Shown: piece after piece, positions 1,942 to 8,359 of the stretch
Layout: each line of letters opens with the position of its first letter
How positions within the stretch are numbered: position 1 is the first letter of the stretch
Origin: Ignavibacteriota bacterium
GTDB taxonomy: Bacteria > Bacteroidota > Ignavibacteria > UBA10030
Assembly (NCBI GenBank): GCA_963701295.1
Contig: OY969585.1
Location: 1,088,001-1,152,000 of the forward strand
DNA length: 64,000 nucleotides
Reading direction: 5' to 3'
Translations under genes and position numbers: made by a program
Notes under the pieces: generated by a model
The model's input: only the letters and a program-made list of their open reading frames with translations
What the model was told of the DNA's origin: nothing
The model's database searches: none

Positions 1942-2373
1942 TCATCCTGGTCGTTTCTTCTTCCCGCAATCAATACAATATCCTTTATGAACACAAATTG
2001 TACCTCCACATTGAGAGCAAGTCCATTTTACATCTTCATTCTTTAAAAATTTTCTAATACCGAGATTTTTAATATTTTCAAGATTTTCAATCATGCTCAT
2101 ATCGTATTTGGTTCGGTATCTTGTATCCAGATGCTTCAAATTGTCGCAGGGGAAATTACTGCATTCAAAACAAAATTTTGCTCTTCCGGTTCGAAAATTT
2201 GTGCAGTTCTTGATTTTACATCGAACACGGGTAACCGGTTTATTCGCGTTCGCTCCTCTGCAGCCGGGACATTTATTTTTCTCTCTCAGATAAGCCATGC
2301 AAATGCCGCAGTTCATTCCGCAAGGAGCTATAAGAGAAAACTTATTCAAGGATTCCATTTTCTCCTTTTTCAC
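1942..2373 (-). CDS. DUF3795 family Cys-rich putative Fe-S/Zn protein
   Basis: APCGMNCGIC..CPGC..CKIKNC..CFECSNFPC plus C-terminal CSQCGG..C..CIDC. Its start overlaps the repressor stop. Confidence 0.8.
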   Translation of the reverse strand: MKKEKMESLNKFSLIAPCGMNCGICMAYLREKNKCPGCRGANANKPVTRVRCKIKNCTNFRTGRAKFCFECSNFPCDNLKHLDTRYRTKYDMSMIENLENIKNLGIRKFLKNEDVKWTCSQCGGTICVHKGYCIDCGKKKRPG

Positions 2374-3026
2374 ACACTCTTAATCACTTTTATAACGCGC
2401 CACATGAAAGTCACATCTTTCTTGTGTACCGCCATTGGTTCGTATTCGGGATTGAGTGGAATCAAGTGTACAAATTGTTCGTCAATTTTTATCCGTTTTA
2501 CAGTATCCTCTTCATCCACGCGCACCACGCAGATGTCGCCGCTTCGCACTTCTAATTTTGGCGTTACCACAATGATGTCGCCGTTCTCGATGCGGGGCGC
2601 CATGCTGTTTCCCTTTACTTCGAGTGCGAACGCATTTGGGTCGCGCACATTGTCCACCGTGATGTATCGCTCTGCCTGATCGGAATGAAACCGCTGGCTC
2701 AATGCACCGGCCGGCACCGATGCAAGCAAGGGAAGCGAAACGAGTTCTACTTTTTTATAACGGTTTGTTGGCAATGGTATGACCTTGGATTTGTGCTGTT
2801 CAGCAGGAACCATCTCTCCTTCACCGCTCAGCAGCCAATGAGCCGCGACTCCGGTCGCTTTGGCAATGCGCATGAGATAATTACTGTCGGGCACCTGATC
2901 GCCTTTTTCCCATCGCTGAACAGTGCGTGTAGCAATATCGATCTTTGCGGCAAGATCAGCCTGGTCAAATTGTTTTAACAACCGCGCTTCGCGGATACGT
3001 TGTGCAATTGTAGGTTTCATAAGCAT
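2370..3026 (-). CDS. XRE-HTH + S24 peptidase repressor (CI/LexA-like, autocleavable)
   Basis: HTH IAQRIREARLLKQFDQADLAAKIDIATRTVQRWEKG, Ala-Gly cleavage site VPAG, catalytic GNSM (Ser) and TVKR (Lys). Start re-called at 3026/3020 rather than 3149. Confidence 0.92.
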   Translation of the reverse strand: MLMKPTIAQRIREARLLKQFDQADLAAKIDIATRTVQRWEKGDQVPDSNYLMRIAKATGVAAHWLLSGEGEMVPAEQHKSKVIPLPTNRYKKVELVSLPLLASVPAGALSQRFHSDQAERYITVDNVRDPNAFALEVKGNSMAPRIENGDIIVVTPKLEVRSGDICVVRVDEEDTVKRIKIDEQFVHLIPLNPEYEPMAVHKKDVTFMWRVIKVIKSV

Positions 3027-3033
3027 TCTCCAA

Positions 3034-3049
3034 ACGACATAAATGTCAT
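3034..3049. promoter_or_regulatory. Candidate operator 1, ACGACA-TAAA-TGTCAT
   Basis: Near-perfect inverted repeat just upstream of the repressor start; same motif as 3143-3158. Confidence 0.7.
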
Positions 3050-3053
3050 AACC

Positions 3054-3083
3054 AAAATAATGCTTTTTATCCCATATTGTCAA
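3054..3083 (-). promoter_or_regulatory. Sigma70 promoter of the repressor gene
   Basis: Minus strand TTGACA (3083-3078), 18-bp spacer, TATTTT (3059-3054). Confidence 0.6.
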
Positions 3084-3134
3084 TAGCTTTATAATAGAGC
3101 AGAAAACAACAGCGGGCTGTGCTGGAATCACTTC

Positions 3135-3163
3135 TTGACAAGACGACAAAAATGTCGTATTGT
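3135..3163 (+). promoter_or_regulatory. Sigma70 promoter of the PolB2 operon, with operator 2 (ACGACA-AAAA-TGTCGT, 3143-3158) in the spacer
   Basis: TTGACA 3135-3140, 17-bp spacer, TATTGT 3158-3163; the spacer holds a perfect 6-4-6 palindrome. Confidence 0.8.
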
Positions 3164-3174
3164 CTTATAAATAC

Positions 3175-3966
3175 ATGAGCAAGATAATCAACATAATACC
3201 CGCTGCGCGCCAACGCCGGTACCCCGCTCCGCCGCCAACCGTGGACCTGCATGATAGTGCGATTCCCATTCGCTCTGAACGGATGATTCATGCCTTTGCA
3301 AACAAACCGGGCAAGGTATTTCTGTTGTACGGCGAGCGGGCTATTTTTCAGTTGTCGCTTCAGATGGCCGCGCATACGATGGTTCAGGGAAATCCTATTG
3401 CCGTTGTAGACGGCTGCAACCGTTTCGATGTGCACGCGCTTTCACGATTTGCCCGCGTGCGGAAAATCGATCCGAACAAATTTCTCAATCATATTTTTAT
3501 CTCGCGCGGCTTCACGTGTTATCAAATGGAACAGGCAATTGCGCACAAACTGCCGGCGTTTCTTGCAACCATCCATTCGAACACTGCACTGGTTTTTGGA
3601 CTGCTTGATACCTTCTACGACGAACAAGCATCTCTGCGTGAGGTGCAGCAGATTCTTCAGAGACTGCTCGGCTCGTTTCAAGAAATGAAATCGAAAGGAG
3701 TCTCGCTCTTGCTGGTGTGTTTAGAAAGGACCGTCGCGCCGCAGGAACGCAATCAGTTGTTTACGACATTAAAGAATGGCGTCGACCGTGTGTACAAACT
3801 CGATATCAATGAACGCGGTACACTTCAGCTCTATTTAGAATCTCAACAGCCTGTGCACGAACAAATAAAAGGAGCATTGAATTATGGGACGAACCGTACC
3901 CACCTTCACCAACCTGATCGATGCGGAACTGGCAAGCTGGTCAAAATTCCGCCGCGGACTGCGTAA
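3175..3966 (+). CDS. Inactivated RadA/RecA-like ATPase (iRadA / ImuA-like)
   Basis: VFLLYGE with no Walker A Lys, VVDGCNRFDVH, IFISRGFTCYQM, LLDTFYDE; first gene of the PolB2 operon. Confidence 0.8.
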   Translation: MSKIINIIPAARQRRYPAPPPTVDLHDSAIPIRSERMIHAFANKPGKVFLLYGERAIFQLSLQMAAHTMVQGNPIAVVDGCNRFDVHALSRFARVRKIDPNKFLNHIFISRGFTCYQMEQAIAHKLPAFLATIHSNTALVFGLLDTFYDEQASLREVQQILQRLLGSFQEMKSKGVSLLLVCLERTVAPQERNQLFTTLKNGVDRVYKLDINERGTLQLYLESQQPVHEQIKGALNYGTNRTHLHQPDRCGTGKLVKIPPRTA

Positions 3967-4138
3967 AGACGATCAGGAAGTTTTCGACGAAATTTTCCGC
4001 GCCGCAAAACTGCACCTGGCAGAAAATTTTTATGCGATGCGGGCTGTTCCGTTCGAAAGCATGATGATGTCGATTGTCGTGGAACAGCAGAAAGCGATTC
4101 GAAGATTGGAAGAAGAAGGAAAGAAAATAAGAAGTTGA
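3884..4138 (+). CDS. Small helical PolB2 partner protein (arCOG07300/PPB2-like)
   Basis: MGRTVPTF..E...WSKFRRGLRKDDQEVFD...PFESMMMSI; SD AAAGGAG upstream; lies between iRadA and PolB2. Confidence 0.8.
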   Translation: MGRTVPTFTNLIDAELASWSKFRRGLRKDDQEVFDEIFRAAKLHLAENFYAMRAVPFESMMMSIVVEQQKAIRRLEEEGKKIRS

Positions 4139-4249
4139 GTAGATGAGTCTATGAGCAATTTAGCCAATGAGCCGTTGAGCCTATAAGTAGTTGAGCATGA
4201 AAAAAATCAGTTTTCAATCTGAAATCTCCAATCTAAAATCTCCAATCTC
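4134..4249 (+). repeat. Degenerate 8-mer tandem array (nnTGAGyn x8) followed by a 7-mer array ((C/A)AATCT(G/C/A) x5)
   Basis: gttgagta gatgagtc tatgagca atttagcc aatgagcc gttgagcc tataagta gttgagca; then caatctg aaatctc caatcta aaatctc caatctc. Confidence 0.75.
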
Positions 4250-6530
4250 TGCCTGGCTGTTCGATGTGTATCCGTCTGAACGCGGCGTCACACTCTGGTT
4301 TATCGGCCGGAACGGTGTACGGCTGCGCTGTTTCCGCACTTTTACGCCGTCATTCTTTCTTCATTTGAATAATTCCGACGCCAAACGTGCGGCGGTTCTT
4401 GCCGACCGGTGCCCTGTTCCGATTTCGCTTTCTCCTACGATGCGCACGGAAATTTACTCCGGCGATTCCATCAATGTGCTGCAAGTCTTTGTTCATGATC
4501 CGATGCGGTTCAAGGAAGTTGTATGGTACTTCGAGAAATTTTTTCCACATTTTGCATTTTTCAATTCTGATGTTTCCGTAGAACAGCAATTTCTGTATGA
4601 AACGCAGTTGTTTCCGCTGGCACTTGGCGAGTATGAGGTCGGTAAGGAAGGTGAACTTCTCTCCTGGCATCTCAATGACAACCGTGAAGCGCCGGAATAT
4701 GAACTGCCGCCGTTTTCCATTATGCAGCTTCGCAACAGCAATGATTTCGTGCCGCCGAAGTACCAGAAGTTTCTGCAGTTAGAGATCAGTTACGAAAACC
4801 GTACGTATGCTTTAGAACAGGATTCACCGCGCGAACTGCTCGAAGCGTTCAACTGGCATCTTCATCATTATGATCCCGACTTGCTTGTTACCGATTACGG
4901 CGATGCGGTTCTTCTTCCGAAGATCCTACAGCTTTCCAAACAGTTCAACATTCCTTTGCTTCTCAATCGAGACGCCGAGGCACAGCACCGCACGACGAAG
5001 GAATCAAGTTTCTTTCAGTACGGAAAAATTGTCCACAAAGATGGTGCATTCACGCTCGCGGGGCGCTGGCATGTCGATGCGAACAATTCTTTTACCGTGA
5101 GCGAAGCTGATCTCGACGGATTATTTGAGATGACGCGTCTGACACAAATGTGCGGACAGCGGCAAGGACGCGCGAGCATCGGCACGTCAATGTCATCGAT
5201 GCAGCTTTCGTGGGCGTACCGCAATAATGTGCTTATTCCGTCGAAGAAACGTGAACCGGAGGAGTTCAAGTCAGCCGCAACACTGCTGCTTGCCGACCGC
5301 GGCGGACTTATTTTTAATCCTCCGCTTGGGTACCACGAAGATGTTGCGGAACTCGATTTCGTCTCGATGTACCCAAGCATTATGGTGAACAACAATGTCT
5401 CGCCGGAGACGGTGAACTGCCGATGCTGCCATAATGAAACAGTGCCAGAACTTGGATATACGATCTGCGAGAAGCGTAAAGGTGTGGTTCCGGAAACACT
5501 TCGCGCTGTTGTCGCCAAACGTGCGTATTACAAACGGATGAAAAAAAAATTCAAGGGAAAAGATGAAGTGCTTTTTAAGCGGTACGATTGCCGGCAAAGT
5601 GCGCTCAAGTGGATGCTGGTAAGCTGCTTCGGCTATCTTGGCTACAAGAACGCCCGCTTCGGACGCATCGAGGCACACGAATCGGTCAATGCCTTTTCGC
5701 GGGATGCCATTCTCACTGCAAAAGAAATTGCCGAGAGCCGCGGCTACAAGCTTCTCCATGCTATTATCGATTGTGTGTGGCTGAAAAAGCCCGGCGCGAC
5801 ACAGGACGATTACGAAGAACTTGCACATGAAATTTCCACACGTGTCGGTATCGATATTTCGCTGGAAGGCATGTACAACTGGATTCTTTTTCCCTCATCC
5901 AAAACAGATCCGCAGATTACTACCGCAAATCACTATGTGGGATGGTACCGGCATGGTGACATCAAAATGCGCGGTATCGAGGCGCGGCGGCGCGATACGC
6001 CGAAATTTATTAAAAACATGCAGAAAGCAATGCTGGATAAAATGTCCGCCGCAAAGAATGTCGAGGAAGTATCGACACTCGTGCCGGAAGTATTGGAGAT
6101 CGCACGGGGCTTCATGGTACTCCTCCAAAGTGGACGTGCAAACCCGATGGAGCTTGTTCTCAAGCGCCACATCACGCGCGAGGCCGATGAATATCTTAAT
6201 AACAGCATCAATGCGGTTGTTTCCAAGATGGTAGAAGAAATGGGAGTACACCTCTCGGCAGGCGAGTCGATCGAGTTCATTATTCTCGATCAATCTGGCA
6301 AGAAAAAGCCCGAAAGAGCTAAACCTCTTGCTCTCTATGCTTTCGAGGACGGCTACGATATTGAGCAGTATACCGAGCTTGCTTTACGGGCTGTGGAAAC
6401 GCTTCTCCTTCCCTTTGGCTACGATGTACAACAGTTGAAAACGCATTTTAGAATCGGTATGCCAAAACAAAAGCGTCTGCAGGTACCCCAAAAAAGTCAG
6501 GAACTTCCATTGTTCCAAATCCAGATCTAA
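4197..6530 (+). CDS. Family B DNA polymerase, PolB2/Dpo2 group
   Basis: Motif A ELDFVSMYPSIM, motif B KWMLVSCFGYLG, motif C reduced to HAIIDCVW (typical of B2), KMRGIEARRRD; exonuclease motifs degenerate. Confidence 0.9.
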   Translation: MKKISFQSEISNLKSPISAWLFDVYPSERGVTLWFIGRNGVRLRCFRTFTPSFFLHLNNSDAKRAAVLADRCPVPISLSPTMRTEIYSGDSINVLQVFVHDPMRFKEVVWYFEKFFPHFAFFNSDVSVEQQFLYETQLFPLALGEYEVGKEGELLSWHLNDNREAPEYELPPFSIMQLRNSNDFVPPKYQKFLQLEISYENRTYALEQDSPRELLEAFNWHLHHYDPDLLVTDYGDAVLLPKILQLSKQFNIPLLLNRDAEAQHRTTKESSFFQYGKIVHKDGAFTLAGRWHVDANNSFTVSEADLDGLFEMTRLTQMCGQRQGRASIGTSMSSMQLSWAYRNNVLIPSKKREPEEFKSAATLLLADRGGLIFNPPLGYHEDVAELDFVSMYPSIMVNNNVSPETVNCRCCHNETVPELGYTICEKRKGVVPETLRAVVAKRAYYKRMKKKFKGKDEVLFKRYDCRQSALKWMLVSCFGYLGYKNARFGRIEAHESVNAFSRDAILTAKEIAESRGYKLLHAIIDCVWLKKPGATQDDYEELAHEISTRVGIDISLEGMYNWILFPSSKTDPQITTANHYVGWYRHGDIKMRGIEARRRDTPKFIKNMQKAMLDKMSAAKNVEEVSTLVPEVLEIARGFMVLLQSGRANPMELVLKRHITREADEYLNNSINAVVSKMVEEMGVHLSAGESIEFIILDQSGKKKPERAKPLALYAFEDGYDIEQYTELALRAVETLLLPFGYDVQQLKTHFRIGMPKQKRLQVPQKSQELPLFQIQI

Positions 6531-6689
6531 TTTCGAGAAGACAATCTATTTCTCTGAGATGATTATACAAAACAAGATTTGAATTTCAGGTGATCTCAGA
6601 TTATCTTCCAGAACAACAAATTATGCAACTTTAACACTTCACATGCCGTCATGTTGCATAATGCTATTTCAAGAACACAAGGTGAATCC

Positions 6690-8359
6690 ATGAAGAACGC
6701 AATGATATTTCTTTTCGCAATAATGCTGTTCGTACCGTTTCTTTTCACAGACGCTCAATCGAACCGAGAGAACCTCAACAATGATAATGTAGGTGAACGT
6801 CTTGGAAACGAAATTGAACAACTTGTTGACAAAATAACACAACGGTGGAGCATCCAAAATGACTTCGAGCAGGATGTGAAAAAGGACACTCTTCCGCCAC
6901 AATCCCGAAGATCACCCGATATTATCGACAGTGAAACTGACGGAAATGCACAAACATTTTCCGGCGATAAAATCGTTCAAGAGTCAGATACGATTAACGG
7001 CAATATCATTGTCAAAGGCGGAAATCTGACAGTCTATGGCGTAGTCAATGGCGACGTGCTGGTGGTCGGCGGTGATTTGCGTTTAAAACGCACCGGCAAG
7101 ATCACCGGTAATCCACGTGTTGTTGATGGAAGCATTCTGAAAGACGAAGGCTCGGTTATCGAAGGATCTGAAGAGAAAACAAGTTATCGTGAAACGCGCA
7201 AAAAGTTTTCACAATCAAGCCGAACATTTGATGTCTTATGGCGAACTGAGCAGACGAACTGGGATAATTATATTTTCCGATATAACCGCGTGGAAAGTAT
7301 TTTTCTCGGCCTCGGGACGGAAAAAAAATATTATTGGGATGGTGAAAAAGTTTGGAATGCATACGGTTCCATCGGTTGGGGATTTAAATCGCATACGTGG
7401 CGTAGCAATTTGGGATTAGTGCGGCAGTTTGCCCTTGTTTCCGATGAAGGATCTGGAATTATTGAACTTGGAGCAGAAGGATATACTCTCACCGATACGA
7501 AAGACCAATGGATTATTTCGCAAAACGAAAACACAGCATCAGCCTTACTGATTCATGAAGATTTTCGTAATTACTTTGAGCGCAAGGGTCTCACAATCCA
7601 TACAGCGTACTATTTGAAACATGACTATTGGAAGGGTGAATTGACACTGGCATATCTGGCGGATTCTTACGATTCTCTAACAAACAAAGTCGATTGGGCG
7701 TTATTTGGCGGTAGTAAAAAGTTTCGTGCAAATCCTGCCATTGACCCGGGCAAGATGCGCAGTGTGATGCTGAGTGGTGGCATCAGGTACCTGTGACCAA
7801 GACAAGCCGAGCACAAGAAGGATGGTGTTTGTTTGGTTCCGCCGAGTTTGCTAAAAAAAACTGGGGAAGCGAATTTGAATTCTATCAATATATGTTCGAT
7901 TTACGACGTTTCCAACCGTTGGGACGATATGAGAATTTTAACGTGCGTGTACGCGTAGGTACTGCAACCGGTGCGCTCCCGCTGCAGAAAGAGTACGAGT
8001 TAGGCGGATTGGGAACGATGAATGCATTTCCTTTCAAGTCGGACATTGGCAACCGGATGATGCTTGTGAATATGGAATTCATTTTGAACGGCAATGTTCT
8101 GGACGATTTGAATTTTTGGCCGACATGGCTTTTTCAATATGTGAATATCATCCTTACCTCGGATGCCGGATTCACACGTTCTGTTCCTCCGTGTGATGGC
8201 GCGGCCCAGGCATTCGGCGGAATGAAGTTGAATGAATTTCAGCACGACTTTGGCGTGGCATTAGGAAACCGGGCCGGCACCTACAGGATTGGATTTGCAT
8301 GGCGAACAGACCGGCCAGCCCCGGTACAGTTTCTTCTCAGGTTTAGCAGGCCATTCTAA
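6690..8359 (+). CDS. Outer-membrane beta-barrel protein with an N-terminal beta-helix (bactofilin-like) segment, split by a frameshift near 7786-7791
   Basis: Signal peptide; GNIIVKGGNLTVYGVVNGDVLVVGG repeats; RYNRVE; LGGLGTM..F (Omp85-like); terminal Phe. ORFs 6651-7796 and 7793-8359 appear to be one gene. Confidence 0.65.

Follow-up and report, generated by a model that had tools for sequence, protein, structure and literature searches.

A predicted phage-type repressor switch at a chromosomal PolB2 operon of an Ignavibacteriota bacterium

Background

What would control a PolB2 polymerase operon in a bacterium whose genome nowhere encodes the LexA winged helix-turn-helix domain (PF01726)? 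This question was raised by the locus at positions 2370-6530 of a 64,000-nucleotide stretch of an Ignavibacteriota bacterium (hereafter the window; positions 1,088,001 to 1,152,000 of contig OY969585.1, assembly GCA_963701295.1). One minus-strand repressor gene is found there, divergent from three plus-strand genes in the order iRadA-PPB2-PolB2. The host genome (3.64 Mb, a single contig, 99.3% complete) has one RecA, one Y-family polymerase (DinB) and one DnaE, and the repressor is its sole S24 protein. An original prediction, made from the DNA letters, had placed the same four open reading frames at the same coordinates and had presented them as a self-contained cassette, a functional analogue of UmuDC or ImuA-ImuB-DnaE2 under a CI-like regulator.

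Our results favour, at roughly three chances in four, the reading that this chromosomal operon is kept off by the divergent CI-type repressor at the palindrome ACGACA-W4-TGTCGT and that repression would be relieved by damage-triggered self-cleavage. The cassette belongs to a family described before and is largely known; the advance is incremental, since the core system was already published (papers are cited below for the parts of them that were covered). What is new is the prediction of a phage-type switch specific to the order, which has a defined operator and governs a small regulon devoid of recA.

Results and discussion

A CI-type repressor with a predicted cleavage site

Pfam assigned the repressor to HTH_3 (expectation value, E, 5e-11) and Peptidase_S24 (E 2e-26). 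LexA_DNA_bind (PF01726) was absent from the Pfam matches, HTH_3/Phage_CI_repr standing in its place, and PHROGs returned phrog_4 (E 7e-45). The expectation of a CI-like rather than LexA-type regulator was thus borne out. In alignments with PDB entries, the N-terminal part of the protein followed the 434 repressor and its C-terminal part LexA, lambda CI and UmuD. The segment V102-P-A104|G105 fell on the V-A-A|G stretch of LexA, and S139 and K175 on its catalytic Ser and Lys, i.e. the alignment displayed the predicted Ala-Gly scissile bond and the Ser-Lys dyad of S24 self-cleaving repressors. The divergent S24 repressor with its VPA|G site was therefore found as predicted. The start codon of its gene is probably the ATG at 3020, with a GGAG 7 nt before it.

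Full-length orthologs (E < 1e-60, tallied from the table) occurred in 107 of the 151 genomes of the order, one family of which displayed distant S24 proteins only. No close relative was recorded in 80 genomes outside the order, where the best match was partial (E 4e-22).

Predicted operators and promoters at the locus

The divergent region of 154 nt contained two predicted sigma-70 promoters and two copies of a palindrome (Table 1). Copy O1, the only perfect match to the 16-mer in the genome, occupies the -35/-10 spacer of the operon promoter TTGACA-17-TATTGT, and copy O2 lies between the predicted promoter of the repressor gene and its ribosome-binding site. A scoring matrix was built from 40 sites in relatives and then applied to places outside this training set. 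In the host genome, O1 and O2 alone scored above 20 bits, and counts at 13-17 bits equalled those of column-shuffled controls. A genome-wide regulon in the host was rejected, strong sites being confined to this locus. No operator site was found at the DUF72 gene located elsewhere in this genome, and no SRAP gene was found in it. The motifs GGA-N5-TCC as well as CTAA-N5-TTAG (Bacteroidetes LexA) and GTG-N11-CAC (FddR) were absent from positions 3021-3175. As for regulation, the locus can accordingly be called self-contained, its two operators being the only strong ones of the genome; the notion of a mobile cassette did not stand, the locus being spread across the order (see below).

Distribution of the operator among relatives

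Among 41 related genomes, the strict form CGACA-W4-TGTCG was matched 65 times and its reversed control 10 times. With one mismatch allowed, 28 of the 49 loci that had iRadA and sufficient upstream DNA showed the palindrome near the start of iRadA; among coding windows, 6 of 288 contained it. The repressor was inside the fetched region in 20 of the 49 loci; in the other 29, the palindrome was still present near iRadA in 15. Matrix sites occurred within 300 nt of 13 of the 16 stand-alone repressor genes outside training (23/30 for all repressor loci). The operator was likewise found directly upstream of PolB2 genes split from their partners (L045, L049, L053, L077 and L152) and before stand-alone DUF72 genes (L147, L149, L150 and L153).

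Negative results delimited this distribution. No operator was found at any of 30 recA upstream regions (best score 8.2 bits), at any of 30 S24 loci outside the order, or in the six cassettes adjoining canonical LexA, two of these loci covering little DNA upstream of lexA. Sites at dinB were recorded in 5 of 30 loci, all five within the repressor-PolB2 cluster. Judged from these counts, the palindrome follows the repressor family: it co-occurs with it and is absent at recA. Gene identities, conservation, promoter-operator geometry and operator distribution could all be read from the sequences compared.

The same figures bear on the possibility that the repressor acts as a global SOS regulator, as in Bacteroidetes, and reaches recA, uvrA and other genes through degenerate sites missed by the matrix. 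It is indeed the only S24 regulator of its genome, and an 18.7-bit site was found at the uvrA start of one relative (L130). Yet the two host sites above 20 bits both belong to this locus, weaker ones do not exceed the shuffled controls, recA upstream regions scored poorly and the dinB sites never left the cluster, which makes a global role quite unlikely.

Several observations weigh against the favoured reading. Gly-Gly occupies the predicted scissile bond in 102 of 120 close repressor homologs, and a literature search found no paper on the effect of Gly-Gly at an S24 cleavage bond. Three of the 16 stand-alone repressor genes had no site within 300 nt. Cassettes L060, L066, L067, L079, L080 and L085 lacked the palindrome, with 4-5 kb upstream of PolB2 covered, and so did L236 and L237, though their genomes encode the repressor. 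The clamp motif (see below) is missing or unclear in many relatives. Finally, relatedness among the genomes deprives the counts of independence, and the 40 training sites of the matrix came from these very relatives.

The Gly-Gly residues, together with the lack of an operator at recA, would fit a repressor that binds the palindrome and that RecA does not inactivate, in which case the operon would answer another signal or stay at a fixed low level. This seems unlikely: the catalytic Ser and Lys are kept in 120/120 homologs and the V-P-x-G loop is retained, the protein of the window has the canonical Ala-Gly, the co-regulated genes are repair genes (DUF72, dinB), and Francisella FddR answers damage without recA induction (PMC13148647).

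Damage-relieved repression by the CI-type protein thus remains our preferred reading. Somewhat less firmly, we also consider it likely that independent recruitment has turned a phage-type repressor, with an operator of its own, into the dedicated switch of the archaeal-derived PolB2 mutasome in one order of Ignavibacteria-like Bacteroidota. This switch would have replaced LexA in most lineages and would govern a mutagenesis-only regulon without recA, made up of the PolB2 cassette and DUF72 and, in some cases, dinB, DUF5131 and tcmP, the operator having been kept on split pieces and lost beside canonical LexA.

Further occurrences of the operator or of similar sequences were recorded. In L164, PolB2 is likewise apart from iRadA and PPB2 and has its own operator directly upstream; in genome G023, iRadA belongs to a different operator-led unit from PolB2. 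Operator-like sites of 25-30 bits in L135 (G004:C55), L133 and L142 (a pair 31 nt apart in the latter) adjoin genes without Pfam or NCBIfam match or without a clear target. A repeated intergenic palindrome with the operator core but other flanks occurred in L137-L139 (G010), L127 and L155, one copy lying just downstream of recA; it is probably a repeat of the repetitive extragenic palindrome (REP) type and a source of false positives. Of 40 regions examined for orphan strict matches in relatives (some of them cluster regions), several had the match in coding sequence or in REP-like repeats, and these matches were not treated as operators. Besides its CI-type cassette, genome G011 has another PolB2 cassette (L162, G011:C44; 52% identity), which lacks the palindrome and is accompanied by canonical LexA and SRAP.

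The polymerase

PolB2 matched Pfam DNA_pol_B, and its model (predicted local distance difference test, pLDDT, 92) folds like Thermococcales PolB. Motif A (DFVSMYPS) is intact and the motif B Lys is kept (K471-W). Motif C reads HAIIDC (H521-A-I-I-D525) instead of YxDTD, the first Asp being absent, and the D(K/R) motif is D367-R-G-G. Residues H521 and D525 and the D367-(K/R)-GG motif were conserved across 75 PolB2 homologs; the metal-binding Asp D387 and D525 were invariant in 76/76 sequences and the motif B Lys was present in 74 of 75 homologs. No acidic pair aligned with the D-x-E of ExoI, and the NGDNFD-type ExoII motif reads YGDAVLL, with a hydrophobic residue at the second Asp position. By these motifs the exonuclease active site is lost; both the IIDC motif and the degenerate exonuclease motifs of the original prediction were recovered.

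The named relatives nearest to the polymerase are metagenome-assembled genomes of Ignavibacteria-like Bacteroidota. Over the N-terminal stretch that is printed, four named loci, L044, L047, L063 and L071, agreed with rows of the published PolB2 table; their polymerases are 85, 74, 71 and 70% identical to that of the window. The latter is therefore, by sequence, a member of the published PolB2/B2 group, where it had been expected to fall. Clamp-like motifs (QELPLF, QIPLF, QQLSFF) were present in many relatives, not in all, and the C-terminal tail of the window's protein is modelled at pLDDT < 50.

Would such an enzyme be active? Bacterial PolB2 might be catalytically inactive or might serve gap filling or fork management instead of mutagenic lesion bypass: the first Asp of motif C is missing, inactivation was the earlier prediction for the family (PMC4104785), and no bacterial member was experimentally tested in the literature found. 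Invariant D387 and D525 and a nearly invariant motif B Lys argue otherwise, as does Sulfolobus Dpo2, an active, exonuclease-free extender polymerase with the same IID motif (PMC8764526). Dpo2 is also damage-inducible and responsible for targeted mutagenesis (PMC7390963). An inactive or non-mutagenic PolB2 is accordingly held to be very unlikely, and a mutagenic extender polymerase is retained.

Two side observations concern this gene family. In distant PolB2 homologs of about 1250 residues (P0128, P0168 and others), a large insertion is found at residue 478 of the query, and the two homologs tested gave intein N-terminal matches. A short frameshifted remnant of the PolB2 C-terminus lies elsewhere in the host genome (G000:C1:789121-789415), and similar ones occur in G004 and G010.

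iRadA and PPB2

Neither Pfam nor NCBIfam names iRadA or PPB2, iRadA has no Pfam match, and PHROGs gave unnamed families only. An alignment profile of 24 iRadA homologs nevertheless matched archaeal RadA (E 1.3e-5), and the model (pLDDT 91) matched RAD51/RadA in Foldseek (E 8e-10, template modelling score up to 0.78). Its P-loop position reads GERAIFQLS, and GKT is missing in 24/24 aligned sequences. iRadA is thus a RadA/Rad51 core without the N-terminal helical domain or the ATPase residues, as the published family requires. In PPB2, the sequence MGRTVPTFTN was invariant in 27/27 aligned homologs. The iRadA lacking the Walker A Lys and the 84-residue MGRTVP partner were hence rightly recognized at the outset.

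ATG 3175 is probably the iRadA start, because TTG 3160 falls in the -10 box. The last 83 nt of iRadA overlap PPB2 in another frame, an overlap that recurs in 31 of 50 loci. As that frame is equally open in the 18 loci lacking the overlap (7 of them have the first stop at +104), the tail length is a by-product of PPB2 codons, and no evidence was obtained for a selected iRadA tail or a frameshift.

Conservation and residence of the locus

Against five relatives, the ratio of non-synonymous to synonymous substitution rates of the four genes lay within 0.02-0.10 in the 18 measurable comparisons out of 20 (two were saturated), by which all four are under purifying selection. Judged by sequence, the locus is functional. 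Strong PolB2 matches were found in 35 of the 41 related genomes and any match in 37. Of 301 genomes sampled across the phylum, 29 had PPB2, and 28 of these belong to this order. A PolB2 tree of 24 genomes grouped 13 same-genus genomes (98/96 support) inside the family; the RecA tree was quick and poorly resolved. The right flank (an outer-membrane gene and argC) is common to close relatives, and the left one is variable (DUF3795, tcmP, DUF5131, DUF559).

The variable left flank, and phage proteins matching the CI-like repressor over its full length at about 30% identity, could point to a recent mobile element or prophage remnant with the repressor adjacent by accident. This is barely credible, being largely refuted by the distribution: PolB2 is strongly matched in most relatives and repressor orthologs extend through the order, the same-genus polymerases group together and close relatives share the right flank. 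The locus looks like a long-resident chromosomal module. In relatives, DUF72, SRAP, dinB or DUF559 genes often sit between the repressor and iRadA.

Proposed mechanism

For binding, cleavage, induction, assembly and catalysis, we infer the following from LexA and CI biochemistry, from Dpo2 and from the complex modelled in PMC11791011. A repressor dimer on O1 would block RNA polymerase at the operon promoter, and repressor on O2 would limit its own synthesis. Upon damage, filaments of uninduced RecA on single-stranded DNA would trigger autocleavage by S139/K175 at A104|G105. The operon would then be transcribed, iRadA being translated from a predicted nearly leaderless message along with PPB2 and PolB2, and the proteins would assemble as in the published PolB2-iRadA-(PPB2)3 model. 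Through its C-terminal QELPLF, the complex may dock on the beta-clamp, and PolB2 would extend primer ends that are mispaired or contain a lesion, with no proofreading, like Sulfolobus Dpo2, at the cost of mutations; prior insertion is possibly the task of the single DinB. The locus would thus need host RecA and, probably, the beta-clamp. The predicted regulon is this locus alone in the host; relatives would add DUF72 and, in some, dinB, DUF5131 or tcmP, never recA.

Comparison with known systems

Makarova 2014 (PMC4104785) described the operon of PolB2, arCOG07300 and inactive RadA, noting copies in bacteria and the neighbouring lexA. Timinskas 2025 (PMC11791011) provided a catalogue and a tree of bacterial PolB2 operons, with iRadA-PPB2-PolB2 as the single bacterial order; for 40 species it modelled the PolB2-iRadA-(PPB2)3 complex, and it also reported clamp motifs and drew the comparison with Pol V. 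There, lexA was defined by PF01726 plus PF00717 and gave 108 neighbourhood hits for 1823 PolB2 operons. The LexA label stands on 1 of 25 Ignavibacteriota rows (among places 1-30 of 32 of the table), and L063, in which a CI-type repressor is divergent from DUF72-iRadA, is unlabelled. The tie between PolB2 and its two partners, drawn in the original prediction from comparative genomics, is thus published in both papers. The newness that it implied does not extend to the cassette, which has been catalogued, with phylogeny and complex modelling including close orthologs; regulation is what is added here. Our literature search did not find the repressor-operator pair (the supplements of PMC8565304 and PMC13148647 were outside it). 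Nor did it find an experimental study of bacterial PolB2, most subscription journals being beyond its reach, in agreement with the earlier statement that none was known.

The nearest published system is bacterial PolB2 operon group 1a (PMC11791011, PMC4104785). It has the same three genes in the same order, the IID motif C, the D(K/R) motif, the MGRT arm, an ATPase-dead RadA and a candidate C-terminal clamp motif, with SRAP and DUF72 as neighbours in relatives. It differs in its published regulator, lexA; in the parts of the two papers covered, neither an operator nor an HTH_3-type repressor is described. Sulfolobus Dpo2, the only experimentally tested model, shares the polymerase group, the altered motif C and the lack of proofreading motifs, but is archaeal, smaller, uses PCNA and is tied to Orc1/Cdc6-type control rather than to an S24 repressor (PMC7390963, PMC8764526).

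Experimental precedent for CI-type repressors in damage control exists (PMC8565304, PMC13148647). Francisella FddR (PMC13148647) is a co-opted phage-type S24 repressor, autoregulated via a palindrome, that controls a divergently transcribed unit (dinB in two species), recA being left uninduced. Its motif (GTG-N11-CAC), targets and phylum are different, and it was characterized by electrophoretic mobility shift assays and RNA sequencing, whereas the present case is computational. The non-canonical LexA of Bacteroidetes (PMC8565304) also has a PF01381 helix-turn-helix plus S24 in LexA's place, within the same phylum-level lineage. It differs by its motifs (GGA-N5-TCC / CTAA-N5-TTAG), by broad regulons including recA and by a C-terminal helical extension that the repressor of the window lacks. 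From the parts of these papers covered, FddR is the closer analogue.

The likeness to UmuDC (Pol V) put forward originally held up in the sequence tests and is drawn in PMC11791011 as well. UmuDC and ImuA-ImuB-DnaE2 resemble the present cassette as predicted damage-inducible multi-subunit translesion polymerases with a RecA-family subunit. ImuA, ImuB and DnaE2 make up the ImuABC mutasome. In contrast, the cassette would combine a B-family catalytic subunit with a RadA-type partner, not one of RecA/ImuA type, and with a PPB2 trimer instead of UmuD'2.

So far, bacterial PolB2 mutasomes are known from computation only in the literature found. Here, a wetland-type bacterial lineage provides repressor, operators, promoter and three structural genes within a compact 4.2 kb, testable as one piece; such a unit could show whether induced mutagenesis is carried out by a B-family complex in bacteria and what the contributions of iRadA and PPB2 are. 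With the predicted operator, one more phage-type repressor would have assumed damage control, in a way comparable to the small FddR regulon. If true, it would point to DUF72 and DUF5131/TcmP as damage-response genes and give a handle on uncharacterised co-regulated genes.

Features and minor observations

The features of the locus are summarized in Table 1. A single RNA run was found, a metatranscriptome with a word share of 0.05, whose 45 contigs were all below 95% identity and thus correspond to relatives.

Table 1. Features of the repressor-PolB2 locus, in window coordinates
Feature	Position	Strand	Basis
CI-type repressor, 216 aa, HTH_3 (434/lambda-like) plus S24 autoprotease	2370..3020	-	Pfam, PHROGs phrog_4, PDB alignment
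Operator O2, ACGACA-TAAA-TGTCAT (predicted)	3034..3049	.	24.6 bits; kept in relatives
Predicted sigma-70 promoter of repressor, TTGACA-18-TATTTT	3054..3083	-	consensus match alone
Predicted sigma-70 promoter of operon, TTGACA-17-TATTGT	3135..3163	+	TTGAC and operator equally spaced in relatives compared
Operator O1, ACGACA-AAAA-TGTCGT (predicted), perfect palindrome	3143..3158	.	28.4 bits
iRadA, RadA/Rad51 ATPase fold without Walker A	3175..3966	+	profile, model, Foldseek
PPB2 (arCOG07300), 84 aa, N-terminal MGRT arm, upstream GGAG Shine-Dalgarno	3884..4138	+	alignment
PolB2 family-B polymerase, 777-779 aa, exact start uncertain	4191..6530	+	Pfam, motifs, model
QELPLF, candidate beta-clamp binding motif, disordered C-terminal tail	6498..6515	+	similar motifs in relatives

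In L031-L036, the control region between repressor and iRadA is interrupted by DUF559 nuclease-like open reading frames, which occur in both orientations and downstream of either promoter. At positions 1-2373 of the window (minus strand), as in L145 and L148, the repressor gene is followed on its own strand by DUF3795, tcmP (TIGR04474) and DUF5131 genes. In G023 a DUF5131-repressor-iRadA run comes directly after the operator, and in G024 the operator lies ahead of tcmP, which suggests that DUF5131/TcmP may be part of a damage regulon; nothing linking DUF5131 with DNA damage was found in the literature search.

On the other side of the locus, an outer-membrane beta-barrel-like gene at 6651-8359 (weak DUF5686/Omp85 hits) is split in two open reading frames near 7790. 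Both parts are in one frame in the nine relatives having it (9/9); compared with these, the split is a frameshift or an assembly error.

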